Assembly (NCBI GenBank): GCA_003971905.1
Contig: RSEE01000026.1
Location: 620,001 to 684,000, forward strand
Reading direction: 5' to 3'
DNA length: 64,000 bases
DNA from: Moniliella sp. 'wahieum'
Lineage: Eukaryota
Shown here: positions 669 through 63,612 of the stretch, one piece after another
Numbering within the stretch: the stretch's first letter is position 1
Layout of the letters: every line of letters begins with the position of its first letter
Program-made: the position numbers and the translations under genes
Notes under the pieces: model-generated
The model's database searches: none
What the model was told of the DNA's origin: nothing
Seen by the model: only the letters and a program-made list of their open reading frames with translations

Positions 669-1573
669 GAGGGGGGCTGAAACGGCGGGGGGGGGGGAGG
701 GCAACAGCGCGGGGAGGCGGAGGCGGGACGAGGGGGCGAGGGACGGGGAGGTTAAGCCTTAAGAGCCGTCGGCCGCCCTCGCCCCGCTCGGCTGCTCTGA
801 CCCCGTGCCCGGATCTGGGCGGGCCGACGCACGTCTCCGCAGCCGCAGCCAGGGGGAGGCAGAGGGGAGTGTGCCGCACTGCGCACGGACACAGGCACTA
901 TGCCAGTGTGCCGCGCCAGTGTGCCTCCGGTGGCCCACCGGCACGCGTCATGTATCGATGATCCCCACGCGGTACCTTTTGGGCCTTAGATCCCCTTGAA
1001 CGTACCTTGAACGTTGAACGAAGCAACCGCAGGGGATCTGCGCTGGGCTTCCACGCAGGCCCTGGGCGTTCGTACAGACGCAGTCCAAGCAACCCGACCA
1101 CATTGTGCTGGATTCAGACCCACCGCTCCCTCTGTCGCTCCCTGCCGCTCCGTGGAGACGCTGGCCCAACGCCCTCCGCGGCAGGCGGCGCATCCTCTGT
1201 TGACGCATCCCGACGCCTGTGTTTTCGCCAGGTAGCAGGGTGAGCTCGACATGTACTTGTCTCCACGAACCCCCTGTTCGTATTCGTCTGCGCCCTGCTC
1301 CTTGCCTCACCCAATCGGTCCTCTGCACCCTCTCCCCCCGTCGAAAAAAGCAGTGCAGGCAATGCGTATACAACGACCGCAACCCTCCTTTTTGCCTTTG
1401 GGCTGATCCATGATCTGCATGATCAATCCGTCCACCGTCCCTATCGATGGTAACATGTAAGAAGTGTCATTCAACTTTAACTGCCCTCTCAGTGGCCTGC
1501 TCCTGCTCAATTCATTCCCTGGCGCTGTTGGTTTTCCGTCTCTATCTTCCCCCTTTCGCCTTCGTTTTACGGC

Positions 1574-1808
1574 TCGCATACCTACGGGCAGGGTCCCGCT
1601 ATCATAAGCCCATATCACCAAAAGGATCACTCTCTTTTCCAGAGCGCCAGGATCGCATACCTACGGGCAGGGTCCCGCTATCATAAGCCCATATCACCAA
1701 AAGGATCACTCTTTTCCAGAGCGCCAGGATCGCATACCTACGGGCAGGGTCCCGCTATCATAAGCCCATATCACCAAAAGGATCACTCTCTTTTCCGAGC
1801 GCCAGGAT
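1574..1808. repeat. Tandem repeat, 3 copies of a ~79-bp unit
   Basis: Unit TCGCATACCTACGGGCAGGGTCCCGCTATCATAAGCCCATATCACCAAAAGGATCACTCTCTTTTCCAGAGCGCCAGGA starts at 1574, 1653 and 1730. Copies differ only by 1-2 nt indels. Confidence 0.95.
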
Positions 1809-2747
1809 GACATCCAAGTTAAGGGAAGTGAAAGTCGTATTCATGTGGTTGGAAAGCATGCGTGTATCAACGAATTCATGGTGGGTTTCAGCGGGCAAGC
1901 TGTGGCCATGGAAAAGAAAAGCGATCCATAATAGAATTCCAGGATGGGAGTTTGAAGCCATTCCTTTTCCCGTGCCCCCCTTGATGGTGTATATGTAGCT
2001 GAAGGGGACATGGAATATGGGGAGAAATGAGAAGAACCACACTTTTGGACCATATATGTGCATAGAAACGTCCAGCAGCTCCTTTACCTTGCCGACGAGG
2101 GGACATTTGAACGGCAATGATTATCGATTAATGACCTACATGCAATCTGCGGAAAGAGATAAATGATGGTAGTAAAGCTGAATGAGCAGATATATGGGTC
2201 TCATTACTGGCGCAAGGGCTATCCTTACTACCGCTGTTATAACGCCCACGTCATCAATATGACGCTGATAATTCTGTTGTATACTCCACAAGTCCTTTCC
2301 CAAGACGACAACACCATCGGTAGCGTGTAACGTTTAGCATAATTGTGGTTACCTTTTCTTGGCAGATTCTTGAGCACCACACTATCCCATCCTGGACAAC
2401 CTTCAAGCTTCAACATACTCTTTCCCTCCCTCCTGCCCCGATCCCCGTACGTTCCCAATTGCGCGCGCGGCGGAGGAGACCATTGCGCCAAGCGCCCCCG
2501 TGCTGATGCGCGATCATATTATAGCCTTTTTTTACTGGCGGTGCCGCCCGCGGGGCAGGGGTTTGGATGGTGAGACGGCCATTCGTGGGAAGCCCTCGCG
2601 GGCGCCATCAGAGCGCGATCGACCAGCATTGGTGCTGCTTGCTGGGAATCCGGGACGGATCCCTCCCCTCCTCTGGGTCTATTGCGACTAGTCCTCCTCT
2701 CTTCTCTTTTGCTTGCCGGCTGCGTCCCACCCTGCTGTGCACCAACC

Positions 2748-14136: not shown

Positions 14137-14827
14137 GGCGGGTTGGGGTGGGTGGTGGGCGGGGGGCATCGGAGCGGACAGCGGTGCGAAAAAGCAGGCA
14201 GGTTGAAAAGCAAAATAAAATCAAAAACAAAATAAACCGCTCGGGATAAAATTTCTGTCCTGGCGAGGGCCAGCATTAAGCATTGGCCATTGCATCATGC
14301 ATCATGCATCATGCACCACCCTTACCTGTGATGGCAGCGCACTCTTGGCGTGTGATGTGTTGGTCACGCACATATCACGCGTCTTGGCAGCCCAAAATTG
14401 ACGCGACCAGCCGCCCAAATTGACTCAATGCCCCCTGGCCGTGGCGCGGAGGCTCCCGAGCGGCGCACCAGGCACGGCGCCTGTGCGGGCAGTAGGGTTG
14501 GGGGAGCCGCGGCGCCCATGTGGCCGCATGGGGCCAGTGGCGCTGGGGTCGGCGCGGAGGGCACGGCAGCGACAGCCAGCCACACTGCCCGCGTGCCCCT
14601 CTGCTCGCCGCAGAGCGCGGCGGCGCTGATGCGCTGATGCTTCTCGGCGTCGATCACCGCACGCCTACCGTCGGCTTATATAGCGCATCCCTCCCACGCG
14701 CCCTCAGTAGTGTACGCCCAGCAGCTCCATCCACGGCTACTCCACCACCCCTACCACCACCACCACTACCACCCAGCACCACTACCACCACCCCTCCTCT
14801 ATATTCGAACCCCCCGTCTTCCTGTGC

Positions 14828-19001: not shown

Positions 19002-20165
19002 GTACCGAGTATCGAGTAGTTGAGTGCAGTCCGAAATCCTTGCTACCCTCTCCCCTTGCGCGGCACACCGCATGGCCATCATGTGCTGCAACCATATCTG
19101 TGGCGCAGGACAGGGACTGACGTTGTGCTTGGTTTGGCCCGTGTAGCTCACGCCTGTAATCTTGTCTTTTCCGTTGTGGCGCAGCGAACGCACGTCTCGA
19201 GCAGAGGTTGGTGGCGTGGTGGGCTGGGCGGTGACACTGCTCCGGTTGGTTCTGGTGGTTGGGCTGCTGCGCTGGGTCTGGTCCAAGCTGTAACATTTTT
19301 CTGTACACTATTATACACTACACTACACTGCACTGCACTGTATTGCCCAACCCTCTGTTGTGCTGTGCACCACAACAAGGCAAAGCAACTTGAATAGAAA
19401 TAGCGATGCTTGCACCTAGTAAAGACGGCCATCTATAGCGGTGGGAACAGCCATCGGCACAGGATATAAAAACGGCTATTAGCAGCGTGCGAGTGAGGTC
19501 CACTCACTCCCCACGGAGCCCCACACGTCGGCAGACGAAGGGCGACAAAGGCCAGGCAGCCGGATGAAATTTCAATGGTCAGTGCAATTTGCAATCCGTC
19601 GCCAGCTGCGGAAGGGGGCTGCGGGCGGAAAGGGGCGCTGGGCGGAACGAGGTGGGGCAGGTGGGGCAGGGGTAGGGTTACGCTGTGCTGGCCCGGGCAA
19701 CCCTAGCACCTTGAGGGAAGGGGCCGAGGGGCGAGAGCAGATCGCAGAGCAGACAGGAGGAGACGAGAGCCGAGAAGAGTGGGCCGAGTACGCACGCGAG
19801 GGGCGTCCGGTGGCGATGGCGTGTGCGCGAGCAGCCTGAAACAGAAGGCGGGATGGGCCGCCCGAGGAGAGAAGAAGAGAAGAGACGCTTTCAATTGGCT
19901 CGACAGCCGACGAGCGACGGACAAGACAACGCAATGGATGATCAGTCACCCACTGCTCATCTCATCGTGCGAGGCTCATTTTGTTCTTCGGCGCGCACGC
20001 TTTGTCCTGTGGGTTGGCCAAGTCTAGTCTTGTCCTTGTCCTTGTTCTTGTGCTTGTCTTGTCCTTGCCATTGCCATCGCCATTGCCATCGCCATCCCCA
20101 CCGCCATCCCCACCGCCATCCCCACCGCCATCCCCATCCCCACCCCATCCCTCCCCCTCACCACC

Positions 20166-22320
20166 ATGGGCGATCGTGAGCTCAACTCCTCCGCATCCGT
20201 CGATGCGTCGGGCTCGGTGCCCGACTCGTCATCGTCCGCCATGCCCCCGCGCGGCCGGGCGCGCCGTTCGCATCATCCAGCGCGACCCATCTGCTTCCAC
20301 CTCCCTCTCCGCCACGCCTTCCTCCACTGTCCCCACCACCGCCAGCAGCAGCCGTACCAGCAGTCGTCGCAACAGTTCCAGCAGCAGTCCTCGGACCGAC
20401 CTGCTTCCGAGCGCACCGAGCGCCGACCAAGAACGTTCCAAGAGCGTGAGGCCGAGTACCAAGCCGCGCGTGCACGCATCTTTGGTGCTGATCCACCCTC
20501 GGCCCCAGCGCCAGCCGGGACAAGCACCGCCTCGACCCCTACGCTGGCCCTGCCTGCCACGGGGGACACTGCGTCTCCTCCTCCTTCCACGTCTACTTCC
20601 ACTTCCACCCCCATTTCCGCCTGCACATCCACATCCACATCCACATCCACCTCTTCACCCCTCCGGCCCTCTCTGGCCCATCTACCCCCTCGGCCTCCCA
20701 CCACGCCCAGCGATGGGAACCGCGGCGGTCACGACGACGTCCTGTCGACCGGTCTCTGCCCCAGCACCTTGGGCCGCCCTCGCACCCGCACCCGCACCCG
20801 CACCCACATCAACACCGGAACCCGCACCACACACCAACACCGCGCCGCACGCGCATCTCACCTACTCGCCTCACCCGCCCCACGCCATCTGCGCTAGCCT
20901 ATGGTCCGTACCGCCCTCAAGGCGCACAACCCATGATGTACTGGCGGGCCGAGATGAGTTATTCGCCAGTGGCGGTGAGCAGCAGCGGGAGGATGGAGTC
21001 CGCCGTTGGCAGCAGGACAGGGGGGAGGTATGTACCCCCCCCTGGCCTACCCGCGCGTACTACTACGCCGGTGCGCCGTACGCGTACCCACTACCTGCGG
21101 GCTCAGGCGCCGGCGTCGGTGCCGCTGCAGGCTACAGTATGGGAAGTACGCTGCCCCCTGCGACGCTGGGCGCCACCGCGGCGGCGGGCGGCGCGTACGC
21201 CCTTCCGGCCCAGATGGCCCAGATGCACCTTTCCCCCCCGCCCGGAGGGGAGGAAAGGGAAAGCGGTGCGAGCCGTACGGGTACCTCTCCCTCCCCTTAC
21301 TCGGCTGGGCCAAGCAGTGCCCAATGGGCCCGCTCCAGTTTCGAGTTCAGCTTCTGCTTCGGCTTCGGCTTCCACTTCGCCCACGGCCTCGACCTCGCCC
21401 TCGCCTTCGGCACCTGGCTGAGGAACTGGACCCAGCTACCACGACGTGTCGCAGCGCGTGGGTATGGACCATGCCCACGCCGCTACTGGTGCTGTGTTGC
21501 GCCCAGCCCGCGGCCTACACGATCCTGCTGCTCCATTGGCGCTCCCTCTGCCTGGACCTGGGCCTGGACTGGACCTGGACCTGGACCTGGACCTGGACCT
21601 GGGACTGGAGCTGGGGCTGGGACTGGTCCTACATCGGCGCTAGCCTACCCCCCACCGGGTACCCCCACGTGGCCCCCGCATACCCTTCCCCGTTGGCGCG
21701 TTCGGAGCGGCCGCCCGCGCCTGTACCAGCGCAAGCCCCTGCGCCCCGCGCGCGACTGCGTCGAAGACCGCTTGCGACGACCGGGAGGGGCGGGGCGAGC
21801 AGCCCGGCGCAGTGGGGGATCGGCAGATACCGATCGTGGGCCAGAGGGCGAGACAGGCTCGGAGCGCGAGTCGGGTCTCGGCGGTCGACCTGCTCGCGCC
21901 GCCCCTGGAACTACCCACTGGTCTGTACTGGTATGGTATGGTATATCTGGTACTGGTACTGGTACTGGTACTGGTACTGGTACTGGTACTGGTACTGGTG
22001 TACTGGTACGGCCAGCGCGTCGCGCCGCGCATGCTCGGCCTCGCTTCTCTCCCCGCTCGACGGACTGGTCATGGCAGCCAAGCCAGTACATGTTCCGCCT
22101 CGGGATCGGGTCAGGCGCGGGCTCAGGATCAGGATCAGGATCAGGATCAGGATCAGGTCTGGGGCGGTCGCGACCGGACTCAAGCTCTGCCTCGCCTATG
22201 CTCCCTCCTGCTGCGCCTGCGCCCTGGTACAGCTCCTTGCGCGCCCTGCGCCGAGCGACGCGCCGATCGCGCCGGTTGTGGCGCCTCGGACGTGACGCGA
22301 TATATGGTATGCGCAGCGGT
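20166..22320 (+). CDS. SUZ-domain low-complexity protein (frameshifted; end uncertain)
   Basis: VRIIQRDPS and RTFQEREAEYQAARARIFG are SUZ-domain signatures. The remainder is Pro/Gly/Ser/Tyr-rich with dipeptide microsatellites. Confidence 0.6.
21949..21999. repeat. (GGTACT)n hexanucleotide microsatellite
   Basis: About 8 tandem GGTACT units. Related (GGACCT)n near 21570-21600 and (GGATCA)n near 22125-22155. Confidence 0.9.
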
Positions 22321-22393
22321 TGAGGATGCACGCGGGCGGGGTACGTCAGGGTCGGATCGGTTTGGATCTCGGCTCTGGCGTGGGACTTGGGCC

Positions 22394-25649: not shown

Positions 25650-27799
25650 GCCGGCGGGGGTGGGGAGGCAGAGGAGGAGGAGGAGGAGAAGGCGAAAGAG
25701 AAGACGGAAGCAGCAAGGCAGGCCAGCAGGCAGAGGCAGAGCTTATAGGGGCGGTGGGCGTGCGAGCGGCGGCTGAGATGGGCGGGCGGAGGCCTGCGAG
25801 CAGCAGACGGGGGCTGTGCAGCCGCCGCCGCATCCCCGATCCCCGATCACCCGTTGCGCATTGCGCATTGCTGAGCCTCAGCGCTCAGGGCTCAGCCTGA
25901 GTGCTCCGCCACTGGCGCCGTGCCCCGCGGCTGCCCTGGCCCCCGCGTGCGCCCCCGCGCCCCACCCGGCACGCACCGACCGCGCCTGCTCGTTGCGGGG
26001 ATGCGCTGTTCAGGCTGAGGCCCATGCACACATGCCCCCGTGCTGCGTCCGCCCGTGGCCAGCGCAGGCCAGCGCGTCTTGTTCGTTACTAATCCCTCTA
26101 ATCGCCGCCGCCACCCACCAGCCCCCCCGCATTCGCCAGCCCCCTCCTCGTCTCCCGCTCGCCCCATCCGCCCAACGCACACAGCCACTGTCGCTAGTCC
26201 GTAGCTATAGTCACGCCTCCTGCCTCCTGCGTCCTGCCATGCCCCCAGGTGGCGCTGGCTGTGGCCGCGCCCATGGCCTCCCCTAGCTCGGCCATCGGCG
26301 CGTCTCCTGTCTCTGTCTTGCGCGGGAAGCTTCCTCCCATGTCCCAGGTGGGCAGCCCCCTAAGCACACGCGCCGCCCAGCCTCAGCCGAAGCATGCGGC
26401 ATGCCAGCAGCCACCTCACGCCTGCCTCGGAGATGCTCGATGTGTGATGTGTGATGCAATGCCGGGCGCACTGCGGAGCACAGTGTCTCGCCCCCGCCGG
26501 CGGCGCCGCGGCCCAGACACGCTCCCCCAGCAGCCCCCCGCACGCCCGCGCCGCGTGTTGCCGGGCGCCTGCGTTCCCACCGCTGTGGCCTGTGGGGGCA
26601 CGACGCAGTGCGCCTCCAGCGCCGTGTGACGTGTGGTGTGCGCATCGCACCACGTAACATGGAACACGATGAACGTACGTTGAACATGCACATTGAGCAC
26701 GTTGAGCGCTGAGCCTCAGCGCCTCAGCGCCTCAGTTAAGCGCAAGCGCTGAGAGTGTTACACGGTACGGCACGGAGGCGTTCCGGCGCTCCAGCGCTCC
26801 CACGCTTGTGTAGGCGCTGCGCCTGCCTCGGTCTCCGCCTCGGCTTGGAGGCGGCCGGAGGGGCTGGCGCTGCTGGGGAACGCAGGGAGCCGGTACTGGG
26901 CACCGATCGTGCGGCCGCTCGCCTCTCTCAAAACGCAGTCTTGCTTCAGCTGAAGCTGAAGGCTGAGAGGCTCAGCTTCTCTCTCATCTCCGCTTGAAGC
27001 TTGAGCGAGCCGCTGGTTGTGACAGACATGTGACCGATGACTCGGTCATCGAGTCATCGGTCATCGGTCATCCCTGGGTATCGAGTATCCGCGCGTCGTT
27101 GCTGCCTGTTCCTCAGGTGATGCAAACCATCTTGCGCGTAAGCCTGGTTGATTAATGATTAATGATTTCGCTCATCTCGGCCGGTGCGCGGCACACAACC
27201 TATATTTCCGGGGCTCCCGACCAACTCCCAGGGGTTACCGGTTACCATAGTTCACTACGACCTGGGCCAGCGCTAAGCAAAATGCACATTCAACGTTCAA
27301 CAGCGTAAGAAAGAATCATGATGCGATCCCACATGTCATGCATCAACATGGACAGGGAACGCACAACAGGGGTATGGGGGCAAACGCTTCGCTTGACAAA
27401 AAAGATAGACAAGTGCCTCCTCCAACCGCCCCGGGACAGCTGAAGGCAAAAAGGCCGTTGCAGTCCGGGTGTACGTCAAGGGCAAATGAAAAAACAAACA
27501 AAAACACATCAAGGAACAGGGTGATTGTCCTGCACAACAAAGTGGGCAAAGAAGAGTAGCAAGTCCATGAGTGGCACAGTTGCCTGAGAATGGGTGGCAC
27601 AGGGTGGTGGGTAGGAAGGATGAGGAAGGACGAGGAAACCAATGGAAAGGAAAGGGAATCAGGTGAAAGGAGAGGAACGGAGAGGAAAGGAGAGGAGAAA
27701 GGAAGAAACGATGGATTGGGAATAATGAGGTTCAGTTCCAAACTGTACGCTGTTGATGATCCTGTTGATGATCGCAATCAACCTAGGCAAGTGGGCCCT

Positions 27800-34411: not shown

Positions 34412-36661
34412 GTTTGAGGATTGGCGAGAGAAATTGGCATTCCATCCCTGCGCCTCTCTGGCCTTCCTACTCTGCCGATGTTCCTTTCTCTTCCGCGGAG
34501 GTCCGTGACATGTGACACCGGATGCACGCCGTACCACAGAGGTATGCCCCTATGAGACGCTCCTTGGCTGCCAAGTCGAGCACGCTTTGCTGCCCAACCC
34601 AAGTCGGGCAAGCTCAGTCCTTGGTCCAACTCGAACCTGGCTTTGGGGTGGCCGCTATCGCCCGATACCTCGATCTTGGTTTTGGAACAGCGCAAGGCAA
34701 AGAACCAGGGCGGATGGGTGTGCCCGCAACGCCTAGTGCCTAATGCATCATGTGCATAATGTATCTGGGGATGGACGTGCCGGAGGCTCAGGCCTGACGC
34801 CCACAACATATAACATGCAATATGTAGGATGTAACATGTAGCACTCAGCACTCGCTATTCTCTCTTCCTTGCCACACTCCTCTTTGTGGCCTGGCGCTGT
34901 CGAGTGCGTCTCTGACACGGCTGGGAACATTCAGTCTCTAGGTGGTTGCACGACGTGGAAAAAATGAGGAAGCTGTGGGACCTGTGAGGCTCAGGCCTGA
35001 TGTCACGTGTCATGCATCATGGGGTTCCCCACGGCGGCCTGCGTGTCGTCTGGCGTGGATGGACAGCAAGCGGGGTGGTAGTGGTGTGCATCTGGTCCGG
35101 CTCGCGCCACGCGCCACGCGACGGAGGGGCTCGCATGATGCATGATGTGTGATGCATGATGGATGGTCGGGAGATTCTGGAGATGCAATCGCGCTGCGTT
35201 CGGCGGTCGGTAGGGATTGGGACGTCGATGGCGTGGATACGGTGCGGCCGGACCGGGGACTGGTATAGGTATAGGCTCCTGGAGCAGACGCAAACGACGC
35301 AAGAAACAGGGAGTGGGATGGGTATGAAAGGTGCGCGTTGCATCAGGCCCAGGAATCAGTTACTCAGTTACTACTAGTTGTTACTCAGGTGAGGACGGTG
35401 AGAGTACTCTGACTCTCAGGACTGAGCCAGCACTCAGCACTCGAGCCGGACTCAGCAGTACTCACTCACTCAGTACTCCATGGAGCCGACTTGCTGCGCA
35501 TCATTTGATGGATGGCACGGTCGATGGTCGATGGCTGGTTACGATTCTAATATGGTTGACGACGCTTGGCCTCTTGCTTTGCTCGGGGGCAGGTACCCTG
35601 GGGCATTCATACCATGTCGATCCATGTCCGTCGACGATCGTCCACCTCGTCGGCCCAGAGCCGATATTGTCAGCGCATTCAAGAACGGTGCCAGTGAGCG
35701 TTGAGAGCATGCTCACAACTCAGCCACTCGCCTCAGCCGCAACGCCGCCGCATCTCGCCGGTGCTGTGCATGGGGGGGACGAAACAGGACGGAACTGGCC
35801 GGGGGGGCGGAAGGTGCGGATGCGCGGACGAGCAGAGCCAGAGCAACCGGAGCAGGTCAGATCTCAGAGCAGGTCAGAGCAGGACAGGGCGCGGTGCAAA
35901 AGGCCGCTTCAGCATGCAGTGCTGCAGCAGCGCTCCAGCACAGCGCGCCTGCGCTGCGCCAGTGGTGGGTGGGTGTAGCAGATCCCCGTGATCAATGTTC
36001 GCTGTGGCCCCGTGCGTGGGTGGCAATGGACGATCGGTGGCCAAGCGTACTGCCGGTCTGCCCCGCCACTACCCACTAGCCACTACCATGGAATTCCGAG
36101 CACCCTGGTGTCAGATGCATGTCAGAGAGGTCGCTCCCATCGGGCATCACATGCATCACCCATCCCATCGCCATGCATCATCCTCCACATCGTCCACCAC
36201 GACGGCACAGGTGCCTGGACGTGGTCGCACTGTGCATGCATCCTGCTGCCTGCGGCATGCAACCCTTGCAGCGCCAGTCCACTCTGCTCCGACGGCCCAA
36301 TGGGCGGTGTGCCACGCCGGTGGCCACTTGCTGCCCCCACCCTTTACGGCCGGCGTGGCGTCCGCCAAGCGCTGCACAACCGCCCAGTTCCCGCCGCCCT
36401 CTGACCACACTGGCCCGCCCACTCACACTGCCCTTGTGCCACATCCTCGTGTTCAGGCGCTCACGAGCTCTCACTCCTGCCTCACTAGCGTCGCCTGGGC
36501 GCCGCGTTGGGCCTGCGCTTATAGCGTGTAGCTGCTGCCTAGCGCAAGTAGCCGACCCCCTTCGCCGCTTTCTTGCTCAACCACCACCACCGTCGTACGC
36601 GCTCCCCTACCTTCCTCCCCACACACTCGTTTCCCACCCACCACACTCTTTACCAGCAGCC

Positions 36662-37319
36662 ATGCGTTTCACCTTCCTTTTCGCCGCTCTCGCCGCCGCG
36701 CGGCCGTGTTCGCCAGCACCTCGCCGACCAGATCGGCACCATCCCGGCTTTCCTCCAGCTGCAGCACCAGGCCTTTGAAGGCACCTCGATGCCTCCCAGC
36801 GCAACCGAGTTTGCCCAGCTTGCCACCCAGATCCACAACCGGAACTCCAAGTCGCTTTCTTCCTGACTGGCTCACGGACAGGCCAAGCAACTGGTGCAAG
36901 ACCTGCTCAACGATCCTTTACCACCGTCAAGCATTGAGGCTAAGCTCTCGGCTCGTGCGGGCATTGAAGACGAGCTGGCCAGCGACAGATCACTGCGTCT
37001 GGGGCCGCCAAGGAGATTGGGCTGGTGCCGTCGTTCATTCTGCTCAACCAGGAGGCCTCCAAGCCCGATGCGTCGCCCGCGGCGGTCGAGGCGCTTGTTC
37101 AACAAGGTCTTACCATGCTTTCCAGGGGTACAAGAAGGGTTCTCTCAAGGTCCTCCTCGGCACCGACACGAAGGGCACTGAGTTTTGTGGCCAAGATTGT
37201 TCGTGCCAAGTCGGAGGCCAAGACGCCCTCGGCCCGCAACGTCAAGCCTGCTTTCTCTCTCCAACGACTCGGCGCGCCAAGCCCGCCGCGCCTACCTTGC
37301 TCGTCGTCGTGCAATCTAA
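36662..37319 (+). CDS. Putative secreted protein with two internal repeats (frameshifted)
   Basis: Signal peptide MRFTFLFAALAAA..; repeats ADQIGTIPAFLQLQHQA and AKEIGLVPSFILLNQEA; basic C-terminus ARRAYLARRRAI*. Confidence 0.6.
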
Positions 37320-38463
37320 GGCATCCCCCATTTGTCTCGTGAACACTTTACTCTCCCCTCTCCTGATCCCTGATCCCTGATCTCGGATTTCGGATCTCGG
37401 ATCTCGGATCTCGGATCTCCTCATGGCCCCTGTTTCAACGGTCGAATCACTCTTTTTTTGCACATCGTTTGCTTGCGTTACCTCTGGGAAGTTATCTTGG
37501 TTTGCATATTTTGCCACCATGTTTTCTCTTTCTTTCCCTCCCCTTCTGGTTCTCGCTGGAGGTGGATTTTCGTCTTTGGTTTTGGGGCTCCTGTATTCGC
37601 TTTCGCTTGCTACTTGCCTATCAATTCCTGGGATCGTTTTGCGATGCATTGCCTTGCCCCCCCTTTTGGTCACCTCTAAGGTCACTCGGGTCACTACGGC
37701 GTGGTTGGCTCACTGGTACGCGCTGGGAACGTTACATGCTGGGATGGTCAATAGTCAATGGTCATGCATCATGCCCGTAGCCCCCGCCGCCCTAACCTGG
37801 GTTTCTTTCTTGGCGCTGGTTAGTTGGTTCTGCGGGATTCTAAGATCTCAGAATCTCATATCTCATATCTCATTCTTTTCCAACACAGGAGGCCCGAAGA
37901 TTCTCCAGGCTGCAACCGAAACTCCTCCACTTACTCGTGGACACAGTGTACACATTCATCAACTATACCACCGTGAACGTTTAGTTGAACTTCAACCGGC
38001 AGTTGTCCTCTGGTTCGTCTCGCCCAGGCCCCAGCGCGCTGGAGTACTAGCTGTACTACGTCTCTTGCGGCCTTGTGAGGTGCTTGGAATTTGGACCGTG
38101 GCCGATAGAAGAGCCGCTCGGGTCAGTTGCAAGTTGACCAATGAAATGAGACGCGAATGACGCTCATTGGCCTAGGTCATCCGGCCATTGCATTCAGATC
38201 GCCCTGGATGAAGCTTGAAGTTATTCTCCTCTGTGACGCCACACTGGCGTAGTGGCGCCGGTAGCCCCCCAAGTCCGGAACCTTCTGGTTTGTTCCGTGC
38301 AATATTCCTTCCTGGCGGGGAGGAACCTTCTCTAGCCTCTGTAGCTCATGTGCAATGCAATACACTACCAATTGCCTGCTCTCTGGTCTATAACATCCTC
38401 GGATTGATTGAAGCTCTGAGCGTTGTTACATGTTATCCATTGCACTTGGAGGTTCGGAAGCGA

Positions 38464-38505
38464 TGATCGATGAACGTTGAACGTTGAACGTTGAACGTTG
38501 AACGT
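38464..38505. repeat. Heptamer array TGA-TCGA-(TGA-ACGT)5
   Basis: tgatcgatgaacgttgaacgttgaacgttgaacgttgaacgt. Confidence 0.95.
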
Positions 38506-38798
38506 ATTCCTATCAAGAGAAGTATGACACCACCCTAGGCTCCAACTGAAGTTCTTCGCCCGTGTGGTGACCAGTGAACACACCAATTCGATGATTCCGG
38601 ATGACCGGTGACCACCGATTGACCACCGATGATTAGAAAGAATCAATTAATTTAATCCAAGCTTTTCCGCTCAGCGCGTTCCGCCCACGTTTCCGACGGG
38701 CAGGGCAGCGCGAAGGTTTTTTCTCGTCCGGGGGGCATTGGGCATTCTCTCTCTCTCTTCTCACCTACCCCCAAACCAACCGGTGCACTTTCCTGATC

Positions 38799-39314
38799 AT
38801 GTTCGGTGCTCTTCGTTCTGCTGCGACCAAGACGGGTGCTTCTGCGCTGGGAGCTTCGCGTGCGCTCTCCACCTCGGCTGCTGCCCAGGACTTTTCGCGC
38901 TTGTCGATCATCGGCCGGATGGCGGGCATTGGGCCGGTGCGCCAGACGGCGAACGGGGTCGACGTGATCTCGTACACGGTTGCCTCTCAAGATCCTGGAT
39001 CGGGGCAAGCTCCTACGACCACCTTCCACCGTATCCGCGCCTTGGGCGAAAGCAACATCAAGCGCGTCTCGTCCGTTCAAAGGGTGACATTGTCTACGTC
39101 GAGGCCGACTTGTCCATCCAGCGCCCTCCTGGCGCCCAAGACGACGTCCCCGGCCGCATCTTTACCAACCACCGTACGTACCCAGGTTTCTTTTCCTTTC
39201 CTTTTTTCTGCCTTGCTTTCTCCTTCCTGCCATGGGATGAACACGCACCTGACCCTTCTTCTGTTCTAAGGATTCCTCTCGGTTGTTAAGCCCGGCTCCG
39301 AATCCCAAGACTAA
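38799..39314 (+). CDS. RIM1: Mitochondrial single-stranded DNA-binding protein; intron 39174-39270
   Basis: Presequence ...RALSTSAAAQDFSRLSIIGR, YTVAS...TTFHRI, KGDIVYVEADL (SSB OB fold). Splicing gives NHRFLSVVKPGSESQD*. Confidence 0.85.
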
Positions 39315-41097
39315 GCGGGTATGGCCGGATTAGTCGGCGTTCAACGTTGAGCGTTCACTTTGCTGCACTGCATGTGAGTGTTTTGGAAAATCAATTCCTA
39401 TGCGTTTTAGACTTTTTCTGGTGCATATTCCTAGGATTGAGGATGGGAGGGAAGAGGATTTGGCGAGCTAGGGCTGCCGAGGAAAAGAGGTACAGGGGGC
39501 GATGGATTGCAAGGGGATACAAGGGTTGGAAGAAGGAACCAGAAAGGCCACAGCAGAGCAGCAAGAACGCCAGTGACAGATTCCCCACTCACCGGGCCAA
39601 CAACGGGGGGCGGGGGTCAGAATCGTGTGGGATTCAAGTTGAGGGTACGTTGACTCAAGTTGAACTCAACACTCAATGTTCATCTCAAGTAAATCACGCG
39701 CACTGTACCACATAACGCGCATTCCCACCCCTCGAACGTCCCGTTCTTGAATCCAAGCCGAAAGGGCTGCTTCAGCCCACACCGGAAACACATGATAAAG
39801 GCGATGTTGGGCTGCGGGCAATTTAAGGAGACGCGTGGGGGGATGGAGAACGATGAGCACGACTGCAGTCGACGCAGGGACGATGTGCCTCAGCCTCATC
39901 GATGAGGGAACTGAACGAAAAGCAGCGCACGTACCTCCTCGGACGACATTGTTTCTCAGAAGAAAAAGCAACAAAAGTTGGTTAGGAAGTGAGGCCTGCA
40001 ACGGCGGGTAGAGCTACGCGGCAAAGAAGCGGGGCGGCAGGGAGTATAAGGTGGAGGTGGGGGGGGTGCACGGGTAGATATGCCATGCAGGTGGGTGTAA
40101 TAGGCTGGTGTTGGACAAGCCAACGGCGAGTGGACACTGCTGCCGCTACCTAGATCATCAGTACCTAGTAACTTAAAGTGGACGCGTATATGTTCCAACA
40201 GTGGGGGACGAGGAGGCGCAAGAGGTAGATGGAAAAAGGTATGTTATGTAAGCACGCTGGCTCAAGGTTTCCCTGGGCTGAGCGAGCCTCAGCGCCACCT
40301 GAGGCCTCAGCGATGGACCGGTCAGTACTCAGTGGTCGGTGGTCAGCTGACAAAAGAGAGGCTGGGGCCTGCTGAGGCGCTCAGACCACCACCAGCTGCT
40401 TGGCAAAACTCAGTTATAGCGCTTCCAACCACCTCCACTTGGCTGATTGAACGTCGGTGGTAAGACTACGGGAGGAGAGGATTGAATATTGACGTTTGAC
40501 TATTGAGGCTGAGCTCGGCGTTCGGCCGAAGCCTGCCCTGTCGGCGCAAAAGCGGCGAGGGACATTGGTCAGCATGCGTGCACGGGACCGGCGGGGGGCA
40601 CACTGCCGCCTCGGCCGGGCTCGATACCCCGCATACATACCCCGTCCCATCATGTGATGTGCCCACTGCTCGCATCCATATCCGTATCCCATCCCCATCC
40701 CCATCCCCATCCCCATCCCAGCTTACTCTGGACTGTACAACCGTAAGTGGGCCGGTGGATGCGGTCGATGGATTGATGGCTAATCCCCGAAGCCAAGCAG
40801 ACCCACTGCCTCAGGCATCCATAGTCTTGCGGCCTGCCGGTGGTGGCAAGCAAACGCAAAGCCAAGAGCCAAAGCCAAACGTCATTTTATTAAGTTGCTT
40901 TAAATTCTTCGAACGGCGTTCTCGGCGTCTGGTTAGCCGAAGCACCACCAAATATATAATTGCCACACGCCGCTTTTGGTGTCCTTGGCACCCCCTGATT
41001 GCATCGCACCCTCTTACAACGCCACCACATCCCCCCCTCCCTGCTGTTGCATACGCCCACTTACGACCACGACCCATCCACGATAACGAGTTACGAC

Positions 41098-42136
41098 ATG
41101 TCCTCCCAACGACCTCCCGATGTTCACCAGCCCACCGAACGCTCCCCGCTCTTACCCGCAGAAACGCCTCTGCCAGCTGCCGCCCTGGTGACCAACATGG
41201 ACATCGAAGCCGATCCTGCTTCCGCCATTTCACTTGCGTCTTCAACCTCGTCCAGCTCCCAATCGCCTCTGATCCACAAAGAGACCATTCGGGATTGGAT
41301 CATCGGATTGTCTGATGGTCTGACGGTACGTTTTTTTAACCCCTCTCTCCATCCTTGCTTTCACACCCATACTAAGCGCCCCTTACACCGTACTGACAAC
41401 CGACGGCTTCCCCCCCGTTCTGTGCGTAGGTCCCTTTTGCCCTGACTGCCGGTCTCTCCTCTGTTGGTTCCTCCAAGCTGGTCGTCGTGGCTGGCCTGGC
41501 GGAACTGACGTCCGGAGCGATCAGCATGGCCCTCGGCGGCTTTCTTTCTGCCCAAGCGGAGAAAGAATTTTACGACAACGCCGTACAAAGTACGACGCTT
41601 CGCCTGGCAGGCTCCGACGCCGAACAAGCCAAATTGGAAGTGACGGAGCTACTTGCCGAGTACGGGATCAGCGAGTCGGTTGCCCACTCGGCTTGCAGCT
41701 GCACCATGCCTCTTTGCCCAGCCCACCTCCCAGTCCAGGAGGGCAGAATACGAATAAGCTGCAAGGTGAAAAGCAAGCCCCCAGTGGATTGGTACGTCTG
41801 CTACTTCATTTAGGCCAAGGACTGGAACCCGTTTCTACCGAGCGCTCGCTCCAGTCAGGCTTCAACATTGGCTTGGGCTACGTGTTGGGCGGTTTGGTGC
41901 CCTTGGTTCCGTATTTTTTATTGGAAACCACCTTGGCGGGATTGCTCGCCTCCACCGCCCTCACCTTTGTCGCGCTGGTCCTGTTTGGTCTGGTCAAGCA
42001 TCGCGTTACAGGCGGCGCTCACAATGCCGGCGCCTACGCTTGGTCCGCACTGACCACCTTAGCTGTCGGAGGCGCGGCAGCTGCCTCGTCCTGGCTCATT
42101 GTGCGCTGGGTCGAAGGACCCGACGCGGACCTATAA
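41098..42136 (+). CDS. CCC1: Vacuolar iron/manganese transporter, VIT1/CCC1 family; intron 41326-41429
   Basis: IRDWIIGLSDGLT|VPFALTAGLSS, AGLAELTSGAISMALGGFLSA, IGLGYVLGGLVPLVPYF, LVLFGLVK, TLAVGGAAAASS. Confidence 0.9.
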
Positions 42137-49681: not shown

Positions 49682-50850
49682 AGTCCAAAACAAGTTGATG
49701 GCGCCCTGGCGAGGTTCATGCATTGTTTACGGATCGTGTCGATCATGCAGCGGAGAGTTTGGATAAAGACACGTTGGACCTCGCCCTCCACCTCCGTATG
49801 TACGTTTAACGCGAGCGGTACCAAATTTGAGAGCGGGGCTCGTGGACCTCGGTGGGAACTTGCTTGGGAGATGCGGATTATCGGCGGTCGTGGATTCGGA
49901 TAAGATGTGCAAACTGGGGCAGGGCATTCATCGCATTGCCCTTCAGTAAAGCTAGTGAAGACGCCTCTTACTATCCTGACTGTACTGTACTCAGACCAAT
50001 TGCTTCGCAACCTGCTTCTTCGATCCGTGCAGTTCTACCAGGCTATCAAGTTGTGGGCGATGTGCTGGTCGAGATTAACGCTTTCCTCTCCATGGAGTTT
50101 CGATAAAGGGGGGGGGGACGAGAACACTCCCAACAGGATAAAAAGGGCGGGTACTTTGACGTGCTCATGAAGCTATCTGACGCGGACGCGCTTGACGGGT
50201 CGGTCACACACACATACCCACCGGCCGTGCATATTGCCCTGTTCTAGATCTTCCTTGAAGCTTGAATTGACACTTGACTCCTTTGTGTCTCTCTCCTTCT
50301 CAGATCAGATCTCATGCGTTGATTTATCGTGTGATTGTTTCTCCTTCCCCTCTGGTATATACGGCACCACTCAATGCAGCTGAATATACCGTCGGCATCC
50401 AAAGCAATATCGCTTCTTCACTACCCCTGATTGGGGGATGCACATGTCCCTTCTAGGCAGGTATAGTGCGTAGCACGTGCATGCACGATGCACCCAAGAG
50501 GTCATCGATTCTCTTGCCATCACTTTTGTTTTTGCCCTCACATGTCACATGCTCACATGTCCATGTCACACAGAGTGCAAGTGGAGTCTGACGATCTGAC
50601 GCCATCGCTGAAGCACAACATATTCTTGTCTTGCACCAGCACCCAACCCAAGGTGGGCGCGTTGCAGCTGTGCGGGACCCACAGCGTTCATTTGCGCTCC
50701 ATCAGGAACGCCCACATGTTATCATCGTTCAACAATGATTAAAGAACCGGCTGCAGAGAAAGAAGAGGAGAACGTGGCGGCGCACAGAAGGGTGGGGACC
50801 AGCTGTAGATATAGTCAGCTACAGGTAGTATGGCATCTGTCTGCATCAGG

Positions 50851-50913
50851 GGAGCATTCGGAGAGCATTCGGAGCATTCGGAACATTCGGGGCATTCGGG
50901 GCATTCGGAGCAT
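50851..50913. repeat. 9-bp minisatellite (GRRCATTCG)n
   Basis: ggagcattcg gagagcattc ggagcattcg gaacattcgg ggcattcggg gcattcggag cat. Confidence 0.85.
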
Positions 50914-51656
50914 CATTGTTCACAAGAATGTAGAGAGGCAGGTTACGCAGGGAGGGACCGTGGTATACAAAGAATGCCATGGCTGGATCGTATATACTGG
51001 AAAGTGTTGGTGCACGAGAGGAAACCGTAACGCCCACGGTACGCCTCAAGGAGAGAAGAAGTTTTCCTGTTTCTTTTGTTCGAGCAATTGGACTTCGACA
51101 AGAATTAAGAACACCAGCAAAAGTGCCACGGATGCATTTTCCTTACCATGTAACAGGCAACAGCTATTCTTTCCTTTGGCGGCGATGGTGATGGTGATGA
51201 TGAGACGCGCGAATACTATGCCACCAAAACGGCTATCAAAAACAAGATGTTTGAGCACTGGAAAGAACTTACTGACGAGTACATTGCATCATTTACTATC
51301 ATTAATTGCACACTGATGCACTCAGTCTGATGCATCTGATGGCGCCTCGTGGGACTGAAGGGGAGACAGTGTAACAGTCGGAGCTATAAAACGAGGGAGG
51401 AAACAGAAGGCATCGGGCAGAGAACAGAGAACAGAGAACAGAGAACAGAAGGAAAAGGAAAGGGAAGAGCGAAACACAGGATGCAGAATTGGAAATTTGA
51501 AGCCAGCTTATAGTATTTAGTCATTTGGTGACAGAGAGACTTGCCTGAGGCCTGAGGCTCAGGCCTGAAGCCCTGAGCCTGACCGAGCGCCGACGGCCGC
51601 TCTGTATACCATTTTTGCCATGGTCGCGCCGCATCATGGCACTACCCCCACGTGCT

Positions 51657-51738
51657 ATATATACGCAACAGCAGCCCCTCCCCACAAAGGAAATATATAC
51701 CCCAACAGCAGCCCTTCCCCACAGAGGAAATATACCCC
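51657..51738. repeat. ~37-bp tandem duplication (2 copies + partial)
   Basis: CAACAGCAGCCC(C/T)TCCCCACA(A/G)AGGAAATATA at 51666 and 51703. Confidence 0.85.
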
Positions 51739-52412
51739 TACCTCTCCGTCAGTGATCAAGTGATGGCCAGTTGCTACACGACGGGGTGACTGGTGTGACT
51801 ATTGTTAGATGAATTGTTTGCAAGGCCACCAGAACGACTGATCCTGACCGCGCATGGGACTGTCCCAGGAACAGTTTTGGGTTCATTGATTAATGACGGC
51901 GAGAGGGAATCGAATAATCGCTCCCCGGTAAGGCCGGTAACCCGTGCCCCTGGAACCTGCTTCTTTTCGACTCTGATCCGCGCGCCTGACGATTGACATG
52001 AATCTTGGTGGGTTGGTACGAACTTGCCCACAGCATACGATGCCATATGAGCGAGCCGGGCGGGGGCAGCCTTTCTCCGTGGCCTGTGCATTAAAGTTCT
52101 TTGGGGGGTTGCAGCTGAGAAACAAACGCTATTAATACTACAATCAAAAGCTAAACATCCAACACGCTCAACGTTTGTTCTGTTTTGCTGATGGTCCGGA
52201 TGGTGCAACCTCTATCTGGGTCTCGTTTATATATACGGGAAGCGACGGATGAGTACTCAGACTGAGTCTCGTTTGTTTGGCATGGTATGGCACAGTCGGT
52301 CGCTCTCTCTACCTGCCCCACAATCCAGGTCCACACTTTGCCGACACCATTTCTGGGGGTTGGCGAAACACGTTGAACGTTGAGCGCTTGAGCCCCTGGG
52401 ACATGAAACTCC

Positions 52413-52438
52413 TCAAGCTTCAAGCTTCAAGCTTCAAG
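52413..52438. repeat. Heptamer array (TCA-AGCT)3-TCA-AG
   Basis: tcaagcttcaagcttcaagcttcaag. Confidence 0.9.
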
Positions 52439-53985
52439 CACCGAAGCTTGAACAAGTTTTTCGGGACGAATTAATTGGTTCACATGTGGGGATCCCATGT
52501 CCCGTGTCCCATCTCTCCGATCTCGTATCTGAGTCTCAGATCTCAGATGTCTCTCGTGGTGTACCTGTGGGTACAGTCCAATGGCGGCCGTCGGGGGAAA
52601 CGATTGGAGCAAGGGGGCAGTGTCACGTGTGCCAAGCGCGGAAATGAAACGTGAAAAATGAAAAGCGATCAACGGTTGGAGGTTAGACGGTTTAACGTTT
52701 AACATTGAAAAGGGCATCCAACGGAGCCGCTAGCGACTCAACTGAACTGGTGCTGGCTGAGTGCTGGGTACTGGTACTGCATGCTGCGCATTACCTAAGG
52801 TGCCTGCTTGGAAGGGCGGGTGGGTCGTGTGCCAGGTATGGTGGAGGGTACTACAGCCTCGAAGTATATAGTGCGGCGCAACAATGGGTACTGGGTGTGC
52901 AGCACATGCCTCCCCACACGACCATCCCCACATGTTGCCAAGAAGGCTTGTGGGGGGTTGGGTGCAGAGTGCTGAGGCGCTCAGGCGAGCCACTCAGGCC
53001 GCGGATGTGATGGCATTCTGAAGGTGATACGGGTGACATGGAACCTGTGGGGCACGACGGCAGGAGGGCAGCCGGCGTGGGCGCGCGGGACAGTGTCGGG
53101 ACGCAGCTTGGCAGCCGGCAGCTCTGCGCGAGCAGAAGCGAGGCAGGGCGAGTGTCGATCATTTGCGGATCATCCATCCTCCATCCTCTACCTCTCCTCC
53201 ACCTTACCCCGGCTGGCCTGTGTACGCACACGATCGGCTGCCGATCTGGATGAACGACCGAACGGCCTGTCAACATGTCAACGTCCCTCTGCCCCTTGAA
53301 GCTTCAAGCTTCACGCGCTTCACGCACCGCCGGGCCTGCTGCCTCGTCTCCCCCACAGCCAGGCACAGTTCGCGCGTCTTCCCGCACACCGCATACACAG
53401 CCCCCGTCGGAGCACCCACCCAGTCTGACCATTCATCGATATCCCATCTCGCGGCACAACCGGTTTGCAGGCCCGATAGCAGAAACGGGAAAGAGTGACC
53501 CGGTGACGCCAGTCGGTGTTTGTCCTTGGCCTCCTCCTCACTTGCTGCGCGACTGAGTGCTGAGCGCCAGGGACGAGGTGAGCCAGGTGTGTGATGATAA
53601 CCGCTCAGCTTGAGCGCTGAGCCGACGCTCTCACCATTCACATATCGGCCAGCGAGGGCGCCAGCAGGCCCACCAGAGCGCAACCCACTCTACTCTTCCC
53701 ACAGTTTTCATGCCTCCTTCTGCCGATGCCGATTGCGCCACGACCCAAACATTTGAATCGTAGGCATCTCTGCCGTCGATATCTGTGACGTGTGGCCGTG
53801 GAGACTTCTATCTCTCAGCTGGTGGTCACCCCCTCACCTTTTCTGGCTCATCCCACCATCCCCTCCTTGTCCCCGAACCCACCATATAGGCTACCTACCG
53901 TCACGGGTTGCCTTGCACTTTCTTTTCTTTCAACCACACACTCGTTTTGTCTCGCCAAGCTCTCATCGTCTTCAGTGTGTGCACC

Positions 53986-61277: not shown

Positions 61278-62673
61278 ATGGCTGCTGTCGCTCCCTCGCC
61301 GCCTGTGCCCTCCCGCCACAGCATCACCCCGCCCTTGACCGTGGGCGAGAACGGGACGGCGGAGGCTGTCGTGCGCAATGGCAATGGCAATGGCATGCCC
61401 TCTGCCGCGTCTGCCGCCCCGGCCTCGAGCCACCACCACACGCTTTCCAACGGCACCGACCCCCGCTCTGACAAGCCCAAGAAGGACCGCTCTGACCCGA
61501 GCGCCCACGATGCCAAGGACAAAGATAAGGACAAAGATAAGGACAAGGACAAGGACAAGGAGAAGGACAAGGATGCCAGCAGCCGCGCTGCTGTGCGCAT
61601 TGCTGTGCCCCACTTGCCCTCGGCCCGCGTGGCCCAGGCACCAGCGCCGAGCATGTACTGGTCTCGCTCCCCTGTCCATGGTGTCGCGCCACGCCGGCCG
61701 TTCCGCGCGCACAGTGCTACGTTGGGAGACGAGACAGTGTACGTGTTTGGCGGGTGCGATTCGAAAGGCTGTTTCCGCGAGCTGTGGACGTTTGATACCG
61801 AGACCATGTGTTGGTCCCGCCCGCGCGTGGCCGGCGAGGTACCAACCCCGCGCCGTGCCCATTCTGCCTGCATGATTGACCATACGCTCTACATCTTTGC
61901 CGGTGGAGATGGTCCGCACTACTTTAACGATCTCTATGTCTTGGACACGCTCTCTCTCTCTGGTCCAAGCCCCAGCCGGGTGTTCAGGTTTTGGGCACGC
62001 CTCCTTCGCCCCGTCGTGCTCATACGGCCAATGCGTGGAACGGCCAGATGATCGTATTTGGCGGTGGCAATGGGGTGGGGGCGCTGAACGACGTGTACAG
62101 CCTTGTTCCCGTCTCCTCCGACCCGGCGCCCGAGGGCGAAGGCACCGACAAGCAGGTCCAGCAGACCGTACTGCAATGGTCCAAATGGGAGTGCACGGGT
62201 AAGGCGCCCGCCGGACGCGGCTACCACACTGCCAACATTGTGGACGACAAGTTGATCGTGATTGGTGGCTCGGACGGCCACATGAGCTTCAACGACATTC
62301 ACATTCTTCAGCTCGATACCAAGGTCTGGTACCAAATCAAGACGGACGAAGTGCACTACCGTCTTGGCCACACTGCCACCCAAGTCGGCTCGTACCTGTT
62401 TGTCATCGGCGGCCATGACAGCAAGTCCTACACCACCGAGATCTTGAGTCTCAACCTGGTCAACTTGCAATGGGAAAAGCGCAAGGCATATGGCGCTCCA
62501 CCATCCGGTCGCGGGTACCACCAAACTTGGCTCCGCGACTCTCGCCTCTTTGTCCATGGTGGGTTCGATGGTAAGGACGTGTACGGGGACATGTGGTACC
62601 TTGATTTGGCTGCCTCGGCTTACCTCCGCCCCAAATCACCTCCTTTACTATTGAGCTCGAGGAGGAGCAGTAA
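61278..62673 (+). CDS. Kelch-repeat beta-propeller protein
   Basis: RAHSAT...VYVFGG, RRAHSAC...LYIFAGG, RRAHTA...MIVFGGG, RGYHTA...LIVIGG, RLGHTAT...LFVIGG, RGYHQT...LFVHGG; (DK)n tract. Ends LPQITSFTIELEEEQ* after a frameshift. Confidence 0.9.
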
Positions 62674-63256
62674 CTAGTAACCACTTAACGTGACATCCAT
62701 ACTCTCGCCCACTCCGTGGCCTTTCCTCGGTATCTCGTGCGCGCCTTTTTTCCCTGGATCGTACGGGCACCACCGCGCTGCCTCCTTGGACCACTCCCCT
62801 CTCCTCTGTTGACCTCCTATTGCTCTGTAGTAGGCCCTAGCCTGGTTTTCCCCGTACAGGCTCCCCGCGGGTAGGGCTCTTTCTCTCTCAATCTCATCGA
62901 TATGACCCTCCCTATCGTACTGCTCAATGCATCTGAAGGCAGACCAAGGACCAGACGGGCGTAGCCTTAGGCCTCCGAGGCCTTGCTCCCCCCTACCACC
63001 TTCTCTCAGTGTACTAGCTCATGCATCAACAGACGTGAGCCAATGGGCCCAGCTAGGTGCCTTGGCGCCTCCAGGAAGGTACCCATGCCGTAGACAGGTG
63101 GTACGCGTCCCTCGCGCCACAGGGGTAGTAGATCAGGTGCTCAGGTGCATTGCTGTCTCGCGTAGAGATGATTCGCTAGCTTAGACTCGACACAGGAGCC
63201 CAACGTCCCCTGCGGGTCCACGGCGCGTCGCAGGTCGGAGCACCTACGATGCGAGC

Positions 63257-63612
63257 TTAGTGCTCCGCCTTGGGCGCCAAGCGAGCTAAGGTAAGGTATC
63301 CCAAAAGTAAAGTCAGTTTTCATCGGGGGTCATCGAGTCATCGAGCGTCATCAACATCGATCCTCCATCCACGTTCCACCTTGCGCAGAACAAAAAGCAC
63401 ACTGCTGGGTCTACAGCGAGGCAGAGGGGATCAACAGGTTCACGGAACGTACCCCATGGGTTCTTGGGGTCCTTGAGTGCCTCGGGGGTGTTGCTGCCCT
63501 TGTCCTGGGTGTTCTTGATCAAGTAGCCCACCACGCCCGTAGCCAAGATGAAGGGGAAGAGGGGCTTGACGATGGGCGTGGAGTAGACGCGGAAACCAAG
63601 GAACGTCGACAT
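63257..63612 (-). CDS. ATP18: Mitochondrial ATP synthase subunit j (i); intron 63286-63452
   Basis: MSTFLGFRVYSTPIVKPLFPFILATGVVGYLI...SNTPEALKDPKNPW; spliced (GTACGT...ACTGAC...TAG) to ARLAPKAEH*. Confidence 0.9.

Follow-up and report, generated by a model that had tools for sequence, protein, structure and literature searches.

Seven-base-pair insertions at TNA sites in a Moniliella contig as candidate excision scars of a cut-and-paste DNA transposon

Elements of the PIF/Harbinger and IS5 types insert at TNA or TWA trinucleotides, and the target duplication of Transib elements is 5 bp. Hairpins on the flanking DNA are produced by hAT, Transib, RAG, and the Mutator-like element (MULE) Muta1, those of Muta1 being symmetric at gel resolution (PMC5499845). 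The yeast nuclease Pso2, which is required for the repair of Ac/Ds excision sites, cuts hairpins 3' of the apex, with a preference for the position 2 nt away from it (PMC3299998), and Artemis, which has a 5'-3' and no 3'-5' exonuclease activity, opens them mainly at +2, giving 4-nt 3' overhangs (PMC2175297). Footprints in Candida albicans belong predominantly to a few types (PMC5873905; PMC3299998). The target-site duplication (TSD) of PIF/Harbinger elements is 3 bp (PMC12730594), and excision of mPing has been reported as precise (PMC4561436), with the rates cited in PMC4423477 varying. Here, we analyze a class of short insertions, centered on TNA trinucleotides, that may be excision scars of a related kind in the genome of Moniliella sp. 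'wahieum'; counts refer, unless stated otherwise, to one 64,000-nt window (the whole stretch of a single assembled contig that was analyzed, with a G+C content of 60.4%) and were derived from sequence only.

An earlier note on this DNA had described intergenic units of T(C/G)A alternating with self-complementary tetramers in exact 7-bp register. The strings it quoted are present at all 16 cited places, and the enrichment of palindromic cores was confirmed, as N4 is palindromic in 74 of 131 occurrences of T(C/G)A-N4-T(C/G)A, compared to a background of 6.2% for palindromic 4-mers. The note put the palindromic tetramers in use at 13 or more of the 16 possible ones, and we found 15, with only TATA missing. 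Measured against 200 dinucleotide-preserving shuffles of the window, a TNA followed by N4 and the same TNA occurs 123 times (28.9 in the shuffles), and such pairs with a palindromic N4 occur 71 times (1.8 in the shuffles, maximum 5). The palindrome effect is confined to T-N-A: the palindromic share is 37/62 for TCA, 26/48 for TGA, 4/6 for TTA, and 4/7 for TAA, compared to 0-20% for the other 60 trinucleotides and 201/2237 over all trinucleotides. No paper describing the pattern, or the Ustilago maydis counterpart that the note had raised, was found in the literature searched.

The true unit is a 12-mer, TNAxy·y'x'·TNAxy, in which the two copies of a 5-bp direct duplication are joined by the inverted complement of its own last 2 nt, so that the junction nucleotides are even-centered palindromic (P) nucleotides. 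This 12-mer has 80 matches at 48 separate loci, compared to 0.26 expected and a maximum of 3 in 200 dinucleotide-preserving shuffles, and over every pairing of duplication length (k) with inverted tract length (p), (5,2) stands out with 148 occurrences versus 11.35 expected. In TNAxy-NN-TNAxy, NN equals y'x' in 80 of 113 cases, where chance would give 1 in 16, and plain heptamer duplications lacking the 2 inverted nt form the minority (33/113). The tetramer is tied to its flank in 60 of the 71 direct cases, sharing its first 2 nt with the dinucleotide that follows the second TNA or its last 2 nt with the dinucleotide that precedes the first; 21 of these are tied to the right flank only, 19 to the left only, and 20 to both, right-only and left-only products thus being equally common. 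Copying of one half from the flank thus accounts for the palindromic form of the tetramer. The inverted tract derives from the xy side, as the mirror filler (the reverse complement of TN) accounts for 3 of the 33 non-P fillers, only one of which lies at a site where the plain-tandem filler differs from the mirror filler. Fillers of the form y'x'xy were observed at three joints, TGAGT-ACGT-TGAGT, TTACC-GGCC-TTACC, and TGATG-CATG-TGATG (at about 56257, 51940, and 36158, minus-strand coordinates), in which the flank dinucleotide is present in direct, inverted, and again direct orientation, an arrangement outside the prediction of the simple scheme set out below.

The trinucleotide that the earlier note took to be a fixed TSA has an unconstrained middle base. 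In 65 arrays it is A in 4, C in 28, G in 28, and T in 5, which matches the frequencies at all TNA sites (0.12, 0.38, 0.38, and 0.12); therefore, the motif is TNA, and TSA is an effect of base composition. The four flanking positions show no base preference in the events. Both T and A are needed, since perfect 12-mers occur at 19.4 per 1000 TNA sites, whereas the corresponding values are 0.19 for CNG, 0.09 for GNC, 0.71 for ANT, 0.71 for sites with T or A only, and 0.47 for sites with neither.

The 12-mers and their variants (here called scars as a description of form) include the following features:
1008 to 62680, either strand: the 48 canonical loci of TNAxy·y'x'·TNAxy (80 matches, 0.26 expected)
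14291 to 14315, plus strand: a (TGCATCA)x3.6 array, the heptamer units of which are fully palindromic (CA-TCA-TG)
27045 to 27058, plus strand: G-TCATC-GA-G-TCATC, a variant with a 6-bp duplication and an example of 10 loci
27149 to 27167, plus strand: TGATT-AA-TGATT-AA-TGATT, two scars
29637 to 29655, plus strand: CGTCA-CG-CGTCA-CG-CGTCA, two mirror-type scars
31235 to 31250, plus strand: GC-TGA-AT·AT·GC-TGA-AT, a variant with a 7-bp duplication and an example of 6 loci
31270 to 31352, plus strand: a hotspot of multiple scars, with ACTAA-GT-ACTAA, GGTCA-CC-GGTCA, TCACT-AG-TCACT (repeatedly), and ACTCA-GT-ACTCA
31595 to 31625, plus strand: CTTCA-AG-CTTCA-AG-CTTCA, followed by the 7-bp-duplication variant CTTCACT-AG-CTTCACT
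34788 to 34797, strand not assigned: the 10-bp palindrome TCAGG|CCTGA, 1 of 11 of the form TNAxy|y'x'TN'A, lying inside a 15-mer that occurs three times
38462 to 38503, plus strand: the model array GA-TGA-TC-GA-TGA-AC-(GT-TGA-AC)x4, derivable from the single original site GA-TGA-AC
52413 to 52438, plus strand: TCAAG-(CT-TCAAG)x3, three like scars with repeated AAGCTT palindromes

In the model array at 38462 to 38503, one scar is templated by the left flank (GA giving TC) and four by the right flank (AC giving GT). Most arrays are small: counted on both strands, 55 of the 65 have two units, 7 have three, 2 have four, and 1 has five. Among the two-unit loci, 33 of 41 are 12-mers (5+2+5), and 8 of 41 are complete 14-mers, y'x'TNAxy·y'x'TNAxy, so that already palindromic targets are overrepresented compared to the approximately 2.6 expected at 1 in 16.

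The duplication varies in length within a sharp limit. When p = 2, with the TNA standing 2 nt from the junction, as it does in the duplication variants, there are 11 matches for k = 4, 80 for k = 5, 11 for k = 6 (10 loci), and 7 for k = 7 (6 loci), whereas k = 8-11 yields none, and the 4 matches at k = 12 are arrays. The extra bases equal those upstream of the first copy in 11 of 12 cases for k = 6 and in 7 of 10 for k = 7, and are therefore templated rather than random.

The scarred loci are scattered over the non-coding parts of the window, with density peaks at 26.7-27.3, 29.5-29.7, 31.2-31.8, 34.5-35.9, 37.7-38.6, and 50.2-53.6 kb, and amount to about 75 TNA-anchored sites in 64 kb (of which roughly 40 kb is non-coding), older mutated copies being extra. 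The stretches 29400-41300 and 49800-53800, which contain no Pfam-supported open reading frame (ORF), carry most of them (e.g., 16 loci in 30-40 kb). The coding map is based on codon usage, which flagged 14.4 kb, and covers 16.4 kb after the addition of Pfam-supported ORFs; it is crude in that introns, promoters, and 3' regions cannot be separated by codon-usage flagging. On this map, in line with the earlier note, in which clear arrays had not been noticed in conserved coding exons, 1 of the 48 loci lies in coding-like or Pfam-supported sequence compared to 11.7 expected from TNA density, and this sole locus sits at the stop of an ORF. Insertions of 7 bp in exons would in any case be selected against.

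As controls, we used 80 eukaryote-like loci (653,097 bases) from metagenome contigs around relatives of the mitochondrial glycerol-3-phosphate dehydrogenase gene of the window, basidiomycete-like ones included; these are not close relatives, as identity in the dehydrogenase protein does not exceed 64% for the long loci, and those with higher values (67-74%) are short and consist mostly of coding sequence. The control DNA contains 7 of the 12-mers, 4 of them in one A+T-rich locus, compared to 80 in 64 kb here, and none of the 33 control loci of at least 6 kb approaches the density of the window. The signature is thus a property of the Moniliella sp. 'wahieum' genome and not of DNA in general. 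Imperfect copies are also in excess: one-mismatch copies number 63, or 15.3 per 1000 sites, compared to 3-5 for other site classes, and two-mismatch copies reach 31 compared to about 21 per 1000, from which it follows that the events accumulated over time and then decayed.

The pattern most likely reflects past mutation rather than a binding code. A direct duplication with a fixed maximum, combined with an even-centered inverted copy of the flank, points to a staggered insertion and an opened hairpin, and we propose, giving the idea about an even chance of being right, that the heptamer units are excision scars of a cut-and-paste DNA transposon, or of a small group of such elements, absent from the window. 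The hairpin-forming nuclease or transposase suggested in the earlier note thereby gains support from the capped direct duplication and from the exactly 2 flank-templated P-type nucleotides, while the transposase itself is deduced from its presumed products. In this scheme, a transposase would insert its element at the symmetric target nnTNAnn with a 7-nt stagger, placing it between two copies of abTNAxy. Excision would leave both flanks as perfectly symmetric hairpins, as with RAG, Transib, and MULEs, and a host nuclease of the Pso2/Artemis type would nick each hairpin 2 nt 3' of its tip. A nicked flank would then end in the 4-nt 3' overhang xy·y'x', and the 5' strand of the other flank would start at T, its ab having moved into its own overhang. 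End joining would ligate the intact 3' overhang to the recessed 5' end, with the other overhang discarded, to produce abTNAxy·y'x'·TNAxy or its mirror abTNA·b'a'·abTNAxy, each with a net gain of 7 bp and k = 7-2 = 5; retention of the overhang of either flank would give the two mirror forms in equal numbers.

The observed mode, k = 5, is 7 minus 2, as predicted by the opening of both hairpins at +2, and the 7-bp target duplication is deduced from this mode and from the limit of k = 7 rather than from the flanks of an element. Fill-in of 1-2 nt on the other overhang would yield k = 6 and k = 7, loss of one 5' nucleotide would yield k = 4, and nothing in the scheme would yield k > 7. Where the unit is already palindromic (y'x'TNAxy), the overhangs would be cohesive, which is how the model predicts the excess of palindromic 14-mers, and repeated events, perhaps together with slippage, would generate homogeneous heptamer arrays. 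Ustilaginomycotina genomes are compact and repeat-poor (PMC5751038); since cut-and-paste movement can scar a genome without adding copies, the scarcity of transposable elements does not contradict a transposon as the source.

Two further classes of joints may be related to the scars. Palindromes of the form TNAxy|y'x'TN'A make up 11 of the 82 ten-base palindromes, compared to about 3 expected, and could be scars with extended P tracts. One of them belongs to the 15-mer GAGGCTCAGGCCTGA, exact copies of which occur at 34783-34797, 34986-35000, and 51554-51568 (0.02 expected) with no likeness beyond the 15 nt; it comprises overlapping odd and even palindromes (TGAG-G-CTCA and TCAGG|CCTGA), and its third copy lies within a CCTGAGG-type heptamer array. 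Furthermore, 7-bp duplications with 2 inverted nt and without a central TNA occur at 15391, 21209, 30658, 30683, 59417, 60234, and 61401, several of them with a GG|CC joint, the total for k = 7 and p = 2 being 20 matches compared to 0.35 expected. These may reflect a second source of such joints, for example an element with a 9-bp duplication.

Several results weigh against excision scars as the explanation. We know of no described transposon family with a strict TNA central in a 7-bp TSD. No transposase domain was detected by Pfam in the 206 ORFs examined in the window (57 of at least 200 amino acids and 149 of 125-199 amino acids), which revealed host genes only, and a search of the window for direct repeats of 3-9 bp beside inverted termini yielded no convincing pair of TSD and terminal inverted repeat (TIR). 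The tetramer is not explained by its flank in 11 of the 71 direct TNA-palindrome-TNA cases, and the junction GGTCA-TCGA-TCACT at 31296, within the multi-scar hotspot, does not follow from the simple rule. The pattern of a classic hAT scar is absent, with 2 matches for the 8-bp type, which is the chance level. Inverted tracts of 1 nt (7 compared to a background of about 6) and of 0 nt (12 compared to about 19) are not enriched. The P tract is 2 nt long almost without exception, in contrast to the variable start of the other copy, although like opening of both hairpins would predict P tracts of 1 and 0 nt in numbers similar to those of k = 6 and k = 7. The activities of Artemis would fit a constant 2-nt P tract with a variable 5' end, but our account of this asymmetry is admittedly ad hoc. 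In rice, 8 of 94 scars were perfect, the remainder carrying deletions or filler (PMC4423477), and the scars here are far denser and more uniform.

Other forms of excision were considered and rejected. A 3-bp duplication with 2 nt taken from each element end is ruled out, as the tetramer follows the flank, and a 5-bp duplication of the Transib kind predicts k = 3, which is at background (7/191). The TNA target suits PIF/Harbinger, yet the duplication takes in 2 nt beyond TNA in the 60 flank-tied cases, and since a 3-bp duplication cannot supply the xy bases, these elements do not fit. An 8-bp hAT-type scar with complemented junction bases has the 2 chance-level matches given above, which makes a classic hAT an unlikely source, and a scar retaining both overhangs (filler y'x'b'a'ab) is absent among 6-nt fillers. 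Repeats of at least 30 nt in the window comprise only low-complexity families and one 77-bp tandem repeat. The best pair resembling a TSD with TIRs, and not a convincing one, consists of inverted 17-mers, TCT(C/G)AGA followed by TCATCGATCA, at 29542-29558 and 31744-31760; TCTCAGA (with a central TCA) forms a 7-bp direct repeat with the 10-bp inverted TCATCGATCA, 2205 bp apart, at 29542 and 31754. These "termini" correspond to a common TCGA-type scar with 5 exact copies in the window, nothing else matches between the ends of the pair, and no transposase ORF lies between them.

Among the alternatives, a transposon-independent process that makes a like 7-bp insertion holds up best and is possible, though clearly less probable than excision scars. 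It could be a site-specific nuclease or domesticated transposase acting at TNA, or a template switch in replication or repair, the latter being the fold-back switching raised in the earlier note, which we retain as a weaker competitor. In a template switch, a strand would copy TNAxy, switch to the complementary or displaced strand and run backwards for 2 nt, re-anneal at the quasi-palindromic TNA, and recopy it, in effect a miniature duplication-inversion-duplication. The window contains no element, the density and uniformity of the events resemble an intrinsic mutational signature, and the abundance of short tandem duplications with periods of 5-10 indicates a duplication-prone background; TNA also pairs with its own reverse complement save at the center, which could aid re-annealing. 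Moreover, replication-based duplication/inversion/duplication is known in yeast and linked to loss of FEN1/rad27, although the known events are about 150 bp long with 30-bp spacers (PMC13334657). A template switch, however, offers no reason for the inversion of exactly 2 nt or for the stop of the duplication at 7 bp, it leaves the requirement for T and A unexplained, given that C..G or G..C would pair better, and the k = 6 and k = 7 variants copy upstream bases without homology for re-annealing. A single nuclease cut alone cannot both duplicate 5-7 bp and add P nucleotides, whereas a staggered insertion with hairpin ends can.

A particular form of this idea, in which an enzyme encoded by the fungus itself (e.g., a domesticated hairpin-forming transposase) or a peculiar repair pathway repeatedly opens TNA sites where chromatin is accessible and non-coding, closing them again with a stereotyped gain of 7 bp, appears rather unlikely. 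If true, such an enzyme or pathway would act as an intrinsic insertional mutator with sequence specificity, and promoters would gain heptamer arrays and 6-bp palindromes from it.

Slippage of heptamer microsatellites, combined with selection that maintains or enriches them for recognition of TCA/TGA half-sites by a dimeric factor, is very improbable. The earlier note had argued that ordinary slippage would not do this, which holds for the founding events, whereas slippage may still enlarge arrays: these reach 5 units, and gain or loss of units is probable once two copies exist. The preponderance of two-copy arrays, the composition of two-unit loci (12-mers rather than 14-bp duplications in 33 of 41), the restriction of units to TNA plus a flank-derived palindrome, and the low share of plain heptamer duplications speak against it as the origin. 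The binding code proposed in the earlier note is likewise not upheld, since the tetramer is dictated by the 2 nt neighboring each site, only T and A are fixed while N, x, and y follow the background, 15 different tetramers are used, and the units are insertions whose copies decay by mutation with age. An artefact of sequencing, assembly, or polishing is equally improbable: the arrays are indeed known from the assembled sequence alone, but the events depend on their flanks, are specific to TNA, avoid coding DNA, and are accompanied by mutated older copies, and we know of no base-calling or assembly error with such properties.

The genes of the window recognized by Pfam encode RRN3, the mitochondrial glycerol-3-phosphate dehydrogenase, a protein kinase, VIT1, Kelch repeats, ribosomal protein L27, pirin, and ATP synthase subunit j. 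Among named relatives of the dehydrogenase, the protein from Jaminaea rosea scores best (71% identity), and two further proteins reach 88-90%; this points to a basidiomycete, probably close to the Microstromatales of the Ustilaginomycotina. Short tandem repeats of all periods are unusually frequent throughout the window (273 Tandem Repeats Finder rows with a score of at least 30), and runs of exact tandem duplication occur at about the same frequency for each period from 5 to 10, so that a general proneness to short duplications accompanies the TNA-specific class. The 77-bp unit forms three tandem copies at 1553-1808, two of them identical, and shows no relation to the heptamer scars. The ORF at 19942-22323 (plus strand), a 793-codon open frame without a Pfam match, is packed with 6-, 12-, and 18-bp repeats, including (ACTGGT)x15 at 21917-22009, which would encode a Thr-Gly dipeptide repeat.

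If the interpretation as excision scars holds, scars alone reveal the target (nnTNAnn), the stagger (7 nt), the excision by symmetric flank hairpins, and the opening at +2 followed by end joining of an element that has not been seen, and in a compact basidiomycete genome with few transposons, conservative cut-and-paste movement can rank as a leading source of insertions and intergenic heptamer minisatellites. If the scars have another origin than a transposon, the pattern marks an unknown site-specific mutational process. The scar units create many A-NNNN-T 6-bp palindromes and tracts of variable length in likely promoters, so that they may have a role in regulatory evolution and be of use as strain markers. 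The literature searched held no description of scars with this target, implied 7-bp geometry, uniformity, and genome-shaping density; transposon footprints with P nucleotides, as a kind of event, are already known.

Compared to described systems, the inverted triplications associated with FEN1/rad27 share the direct-inverted-direct order and differ in their scale of about 150 bp and in their spacers, and the abstract and outline of the report mention no sequence-specific site (PMC13334657). PIF/Harbinger and IS5-type elements share the trinucleotide target and differ in their 3-bp duplication, compared to 5-7 bp here, including 2 nt past TNA. Muta1 resembles the proposed scheme in its symmetric flank hairpin, an 86-nt product from a 43-bp flank (PMC5499845), while MULE duplications measure 8-10 bp and excision of Muta1 in yeast is more than 90% precise. 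Both hAT7, from rusts, and Kyakuja, of the KDZ group, from Laccaria, are cut-and-paste lineages of Basidiomycota with a 7-bp duplication, the length predicted for the scars (PMC12730594), although neither is on record for Ustilaginomycotina and no copy is present in the window. The Ac/Ds (hAT) footprints of yeasts and plants are alike in that both target copies are kept, short P insertions occur at the joint, and a Pso2-type opener acts together with end joining (PMC5873905; PMC3299998); hAT scars differ in their 8-bp duplications and in a center that is the complement of the single base beside the element (PMC5873905), whereas the joints here are even-centered and the implied duplication is 7 bp. 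V(D)J coding joints formed by RAG and Artemis share the symmetric hairpin opened mainly 2 nt 3' of its tip, the self-complementary 4-nt 3' overhang, and the 2-nt P tract (PMC2175297), but they lack a TSD and usually lose nucleotides, whereas the P tract in the Moniliella window lies between direct copies and the products are very uniform.

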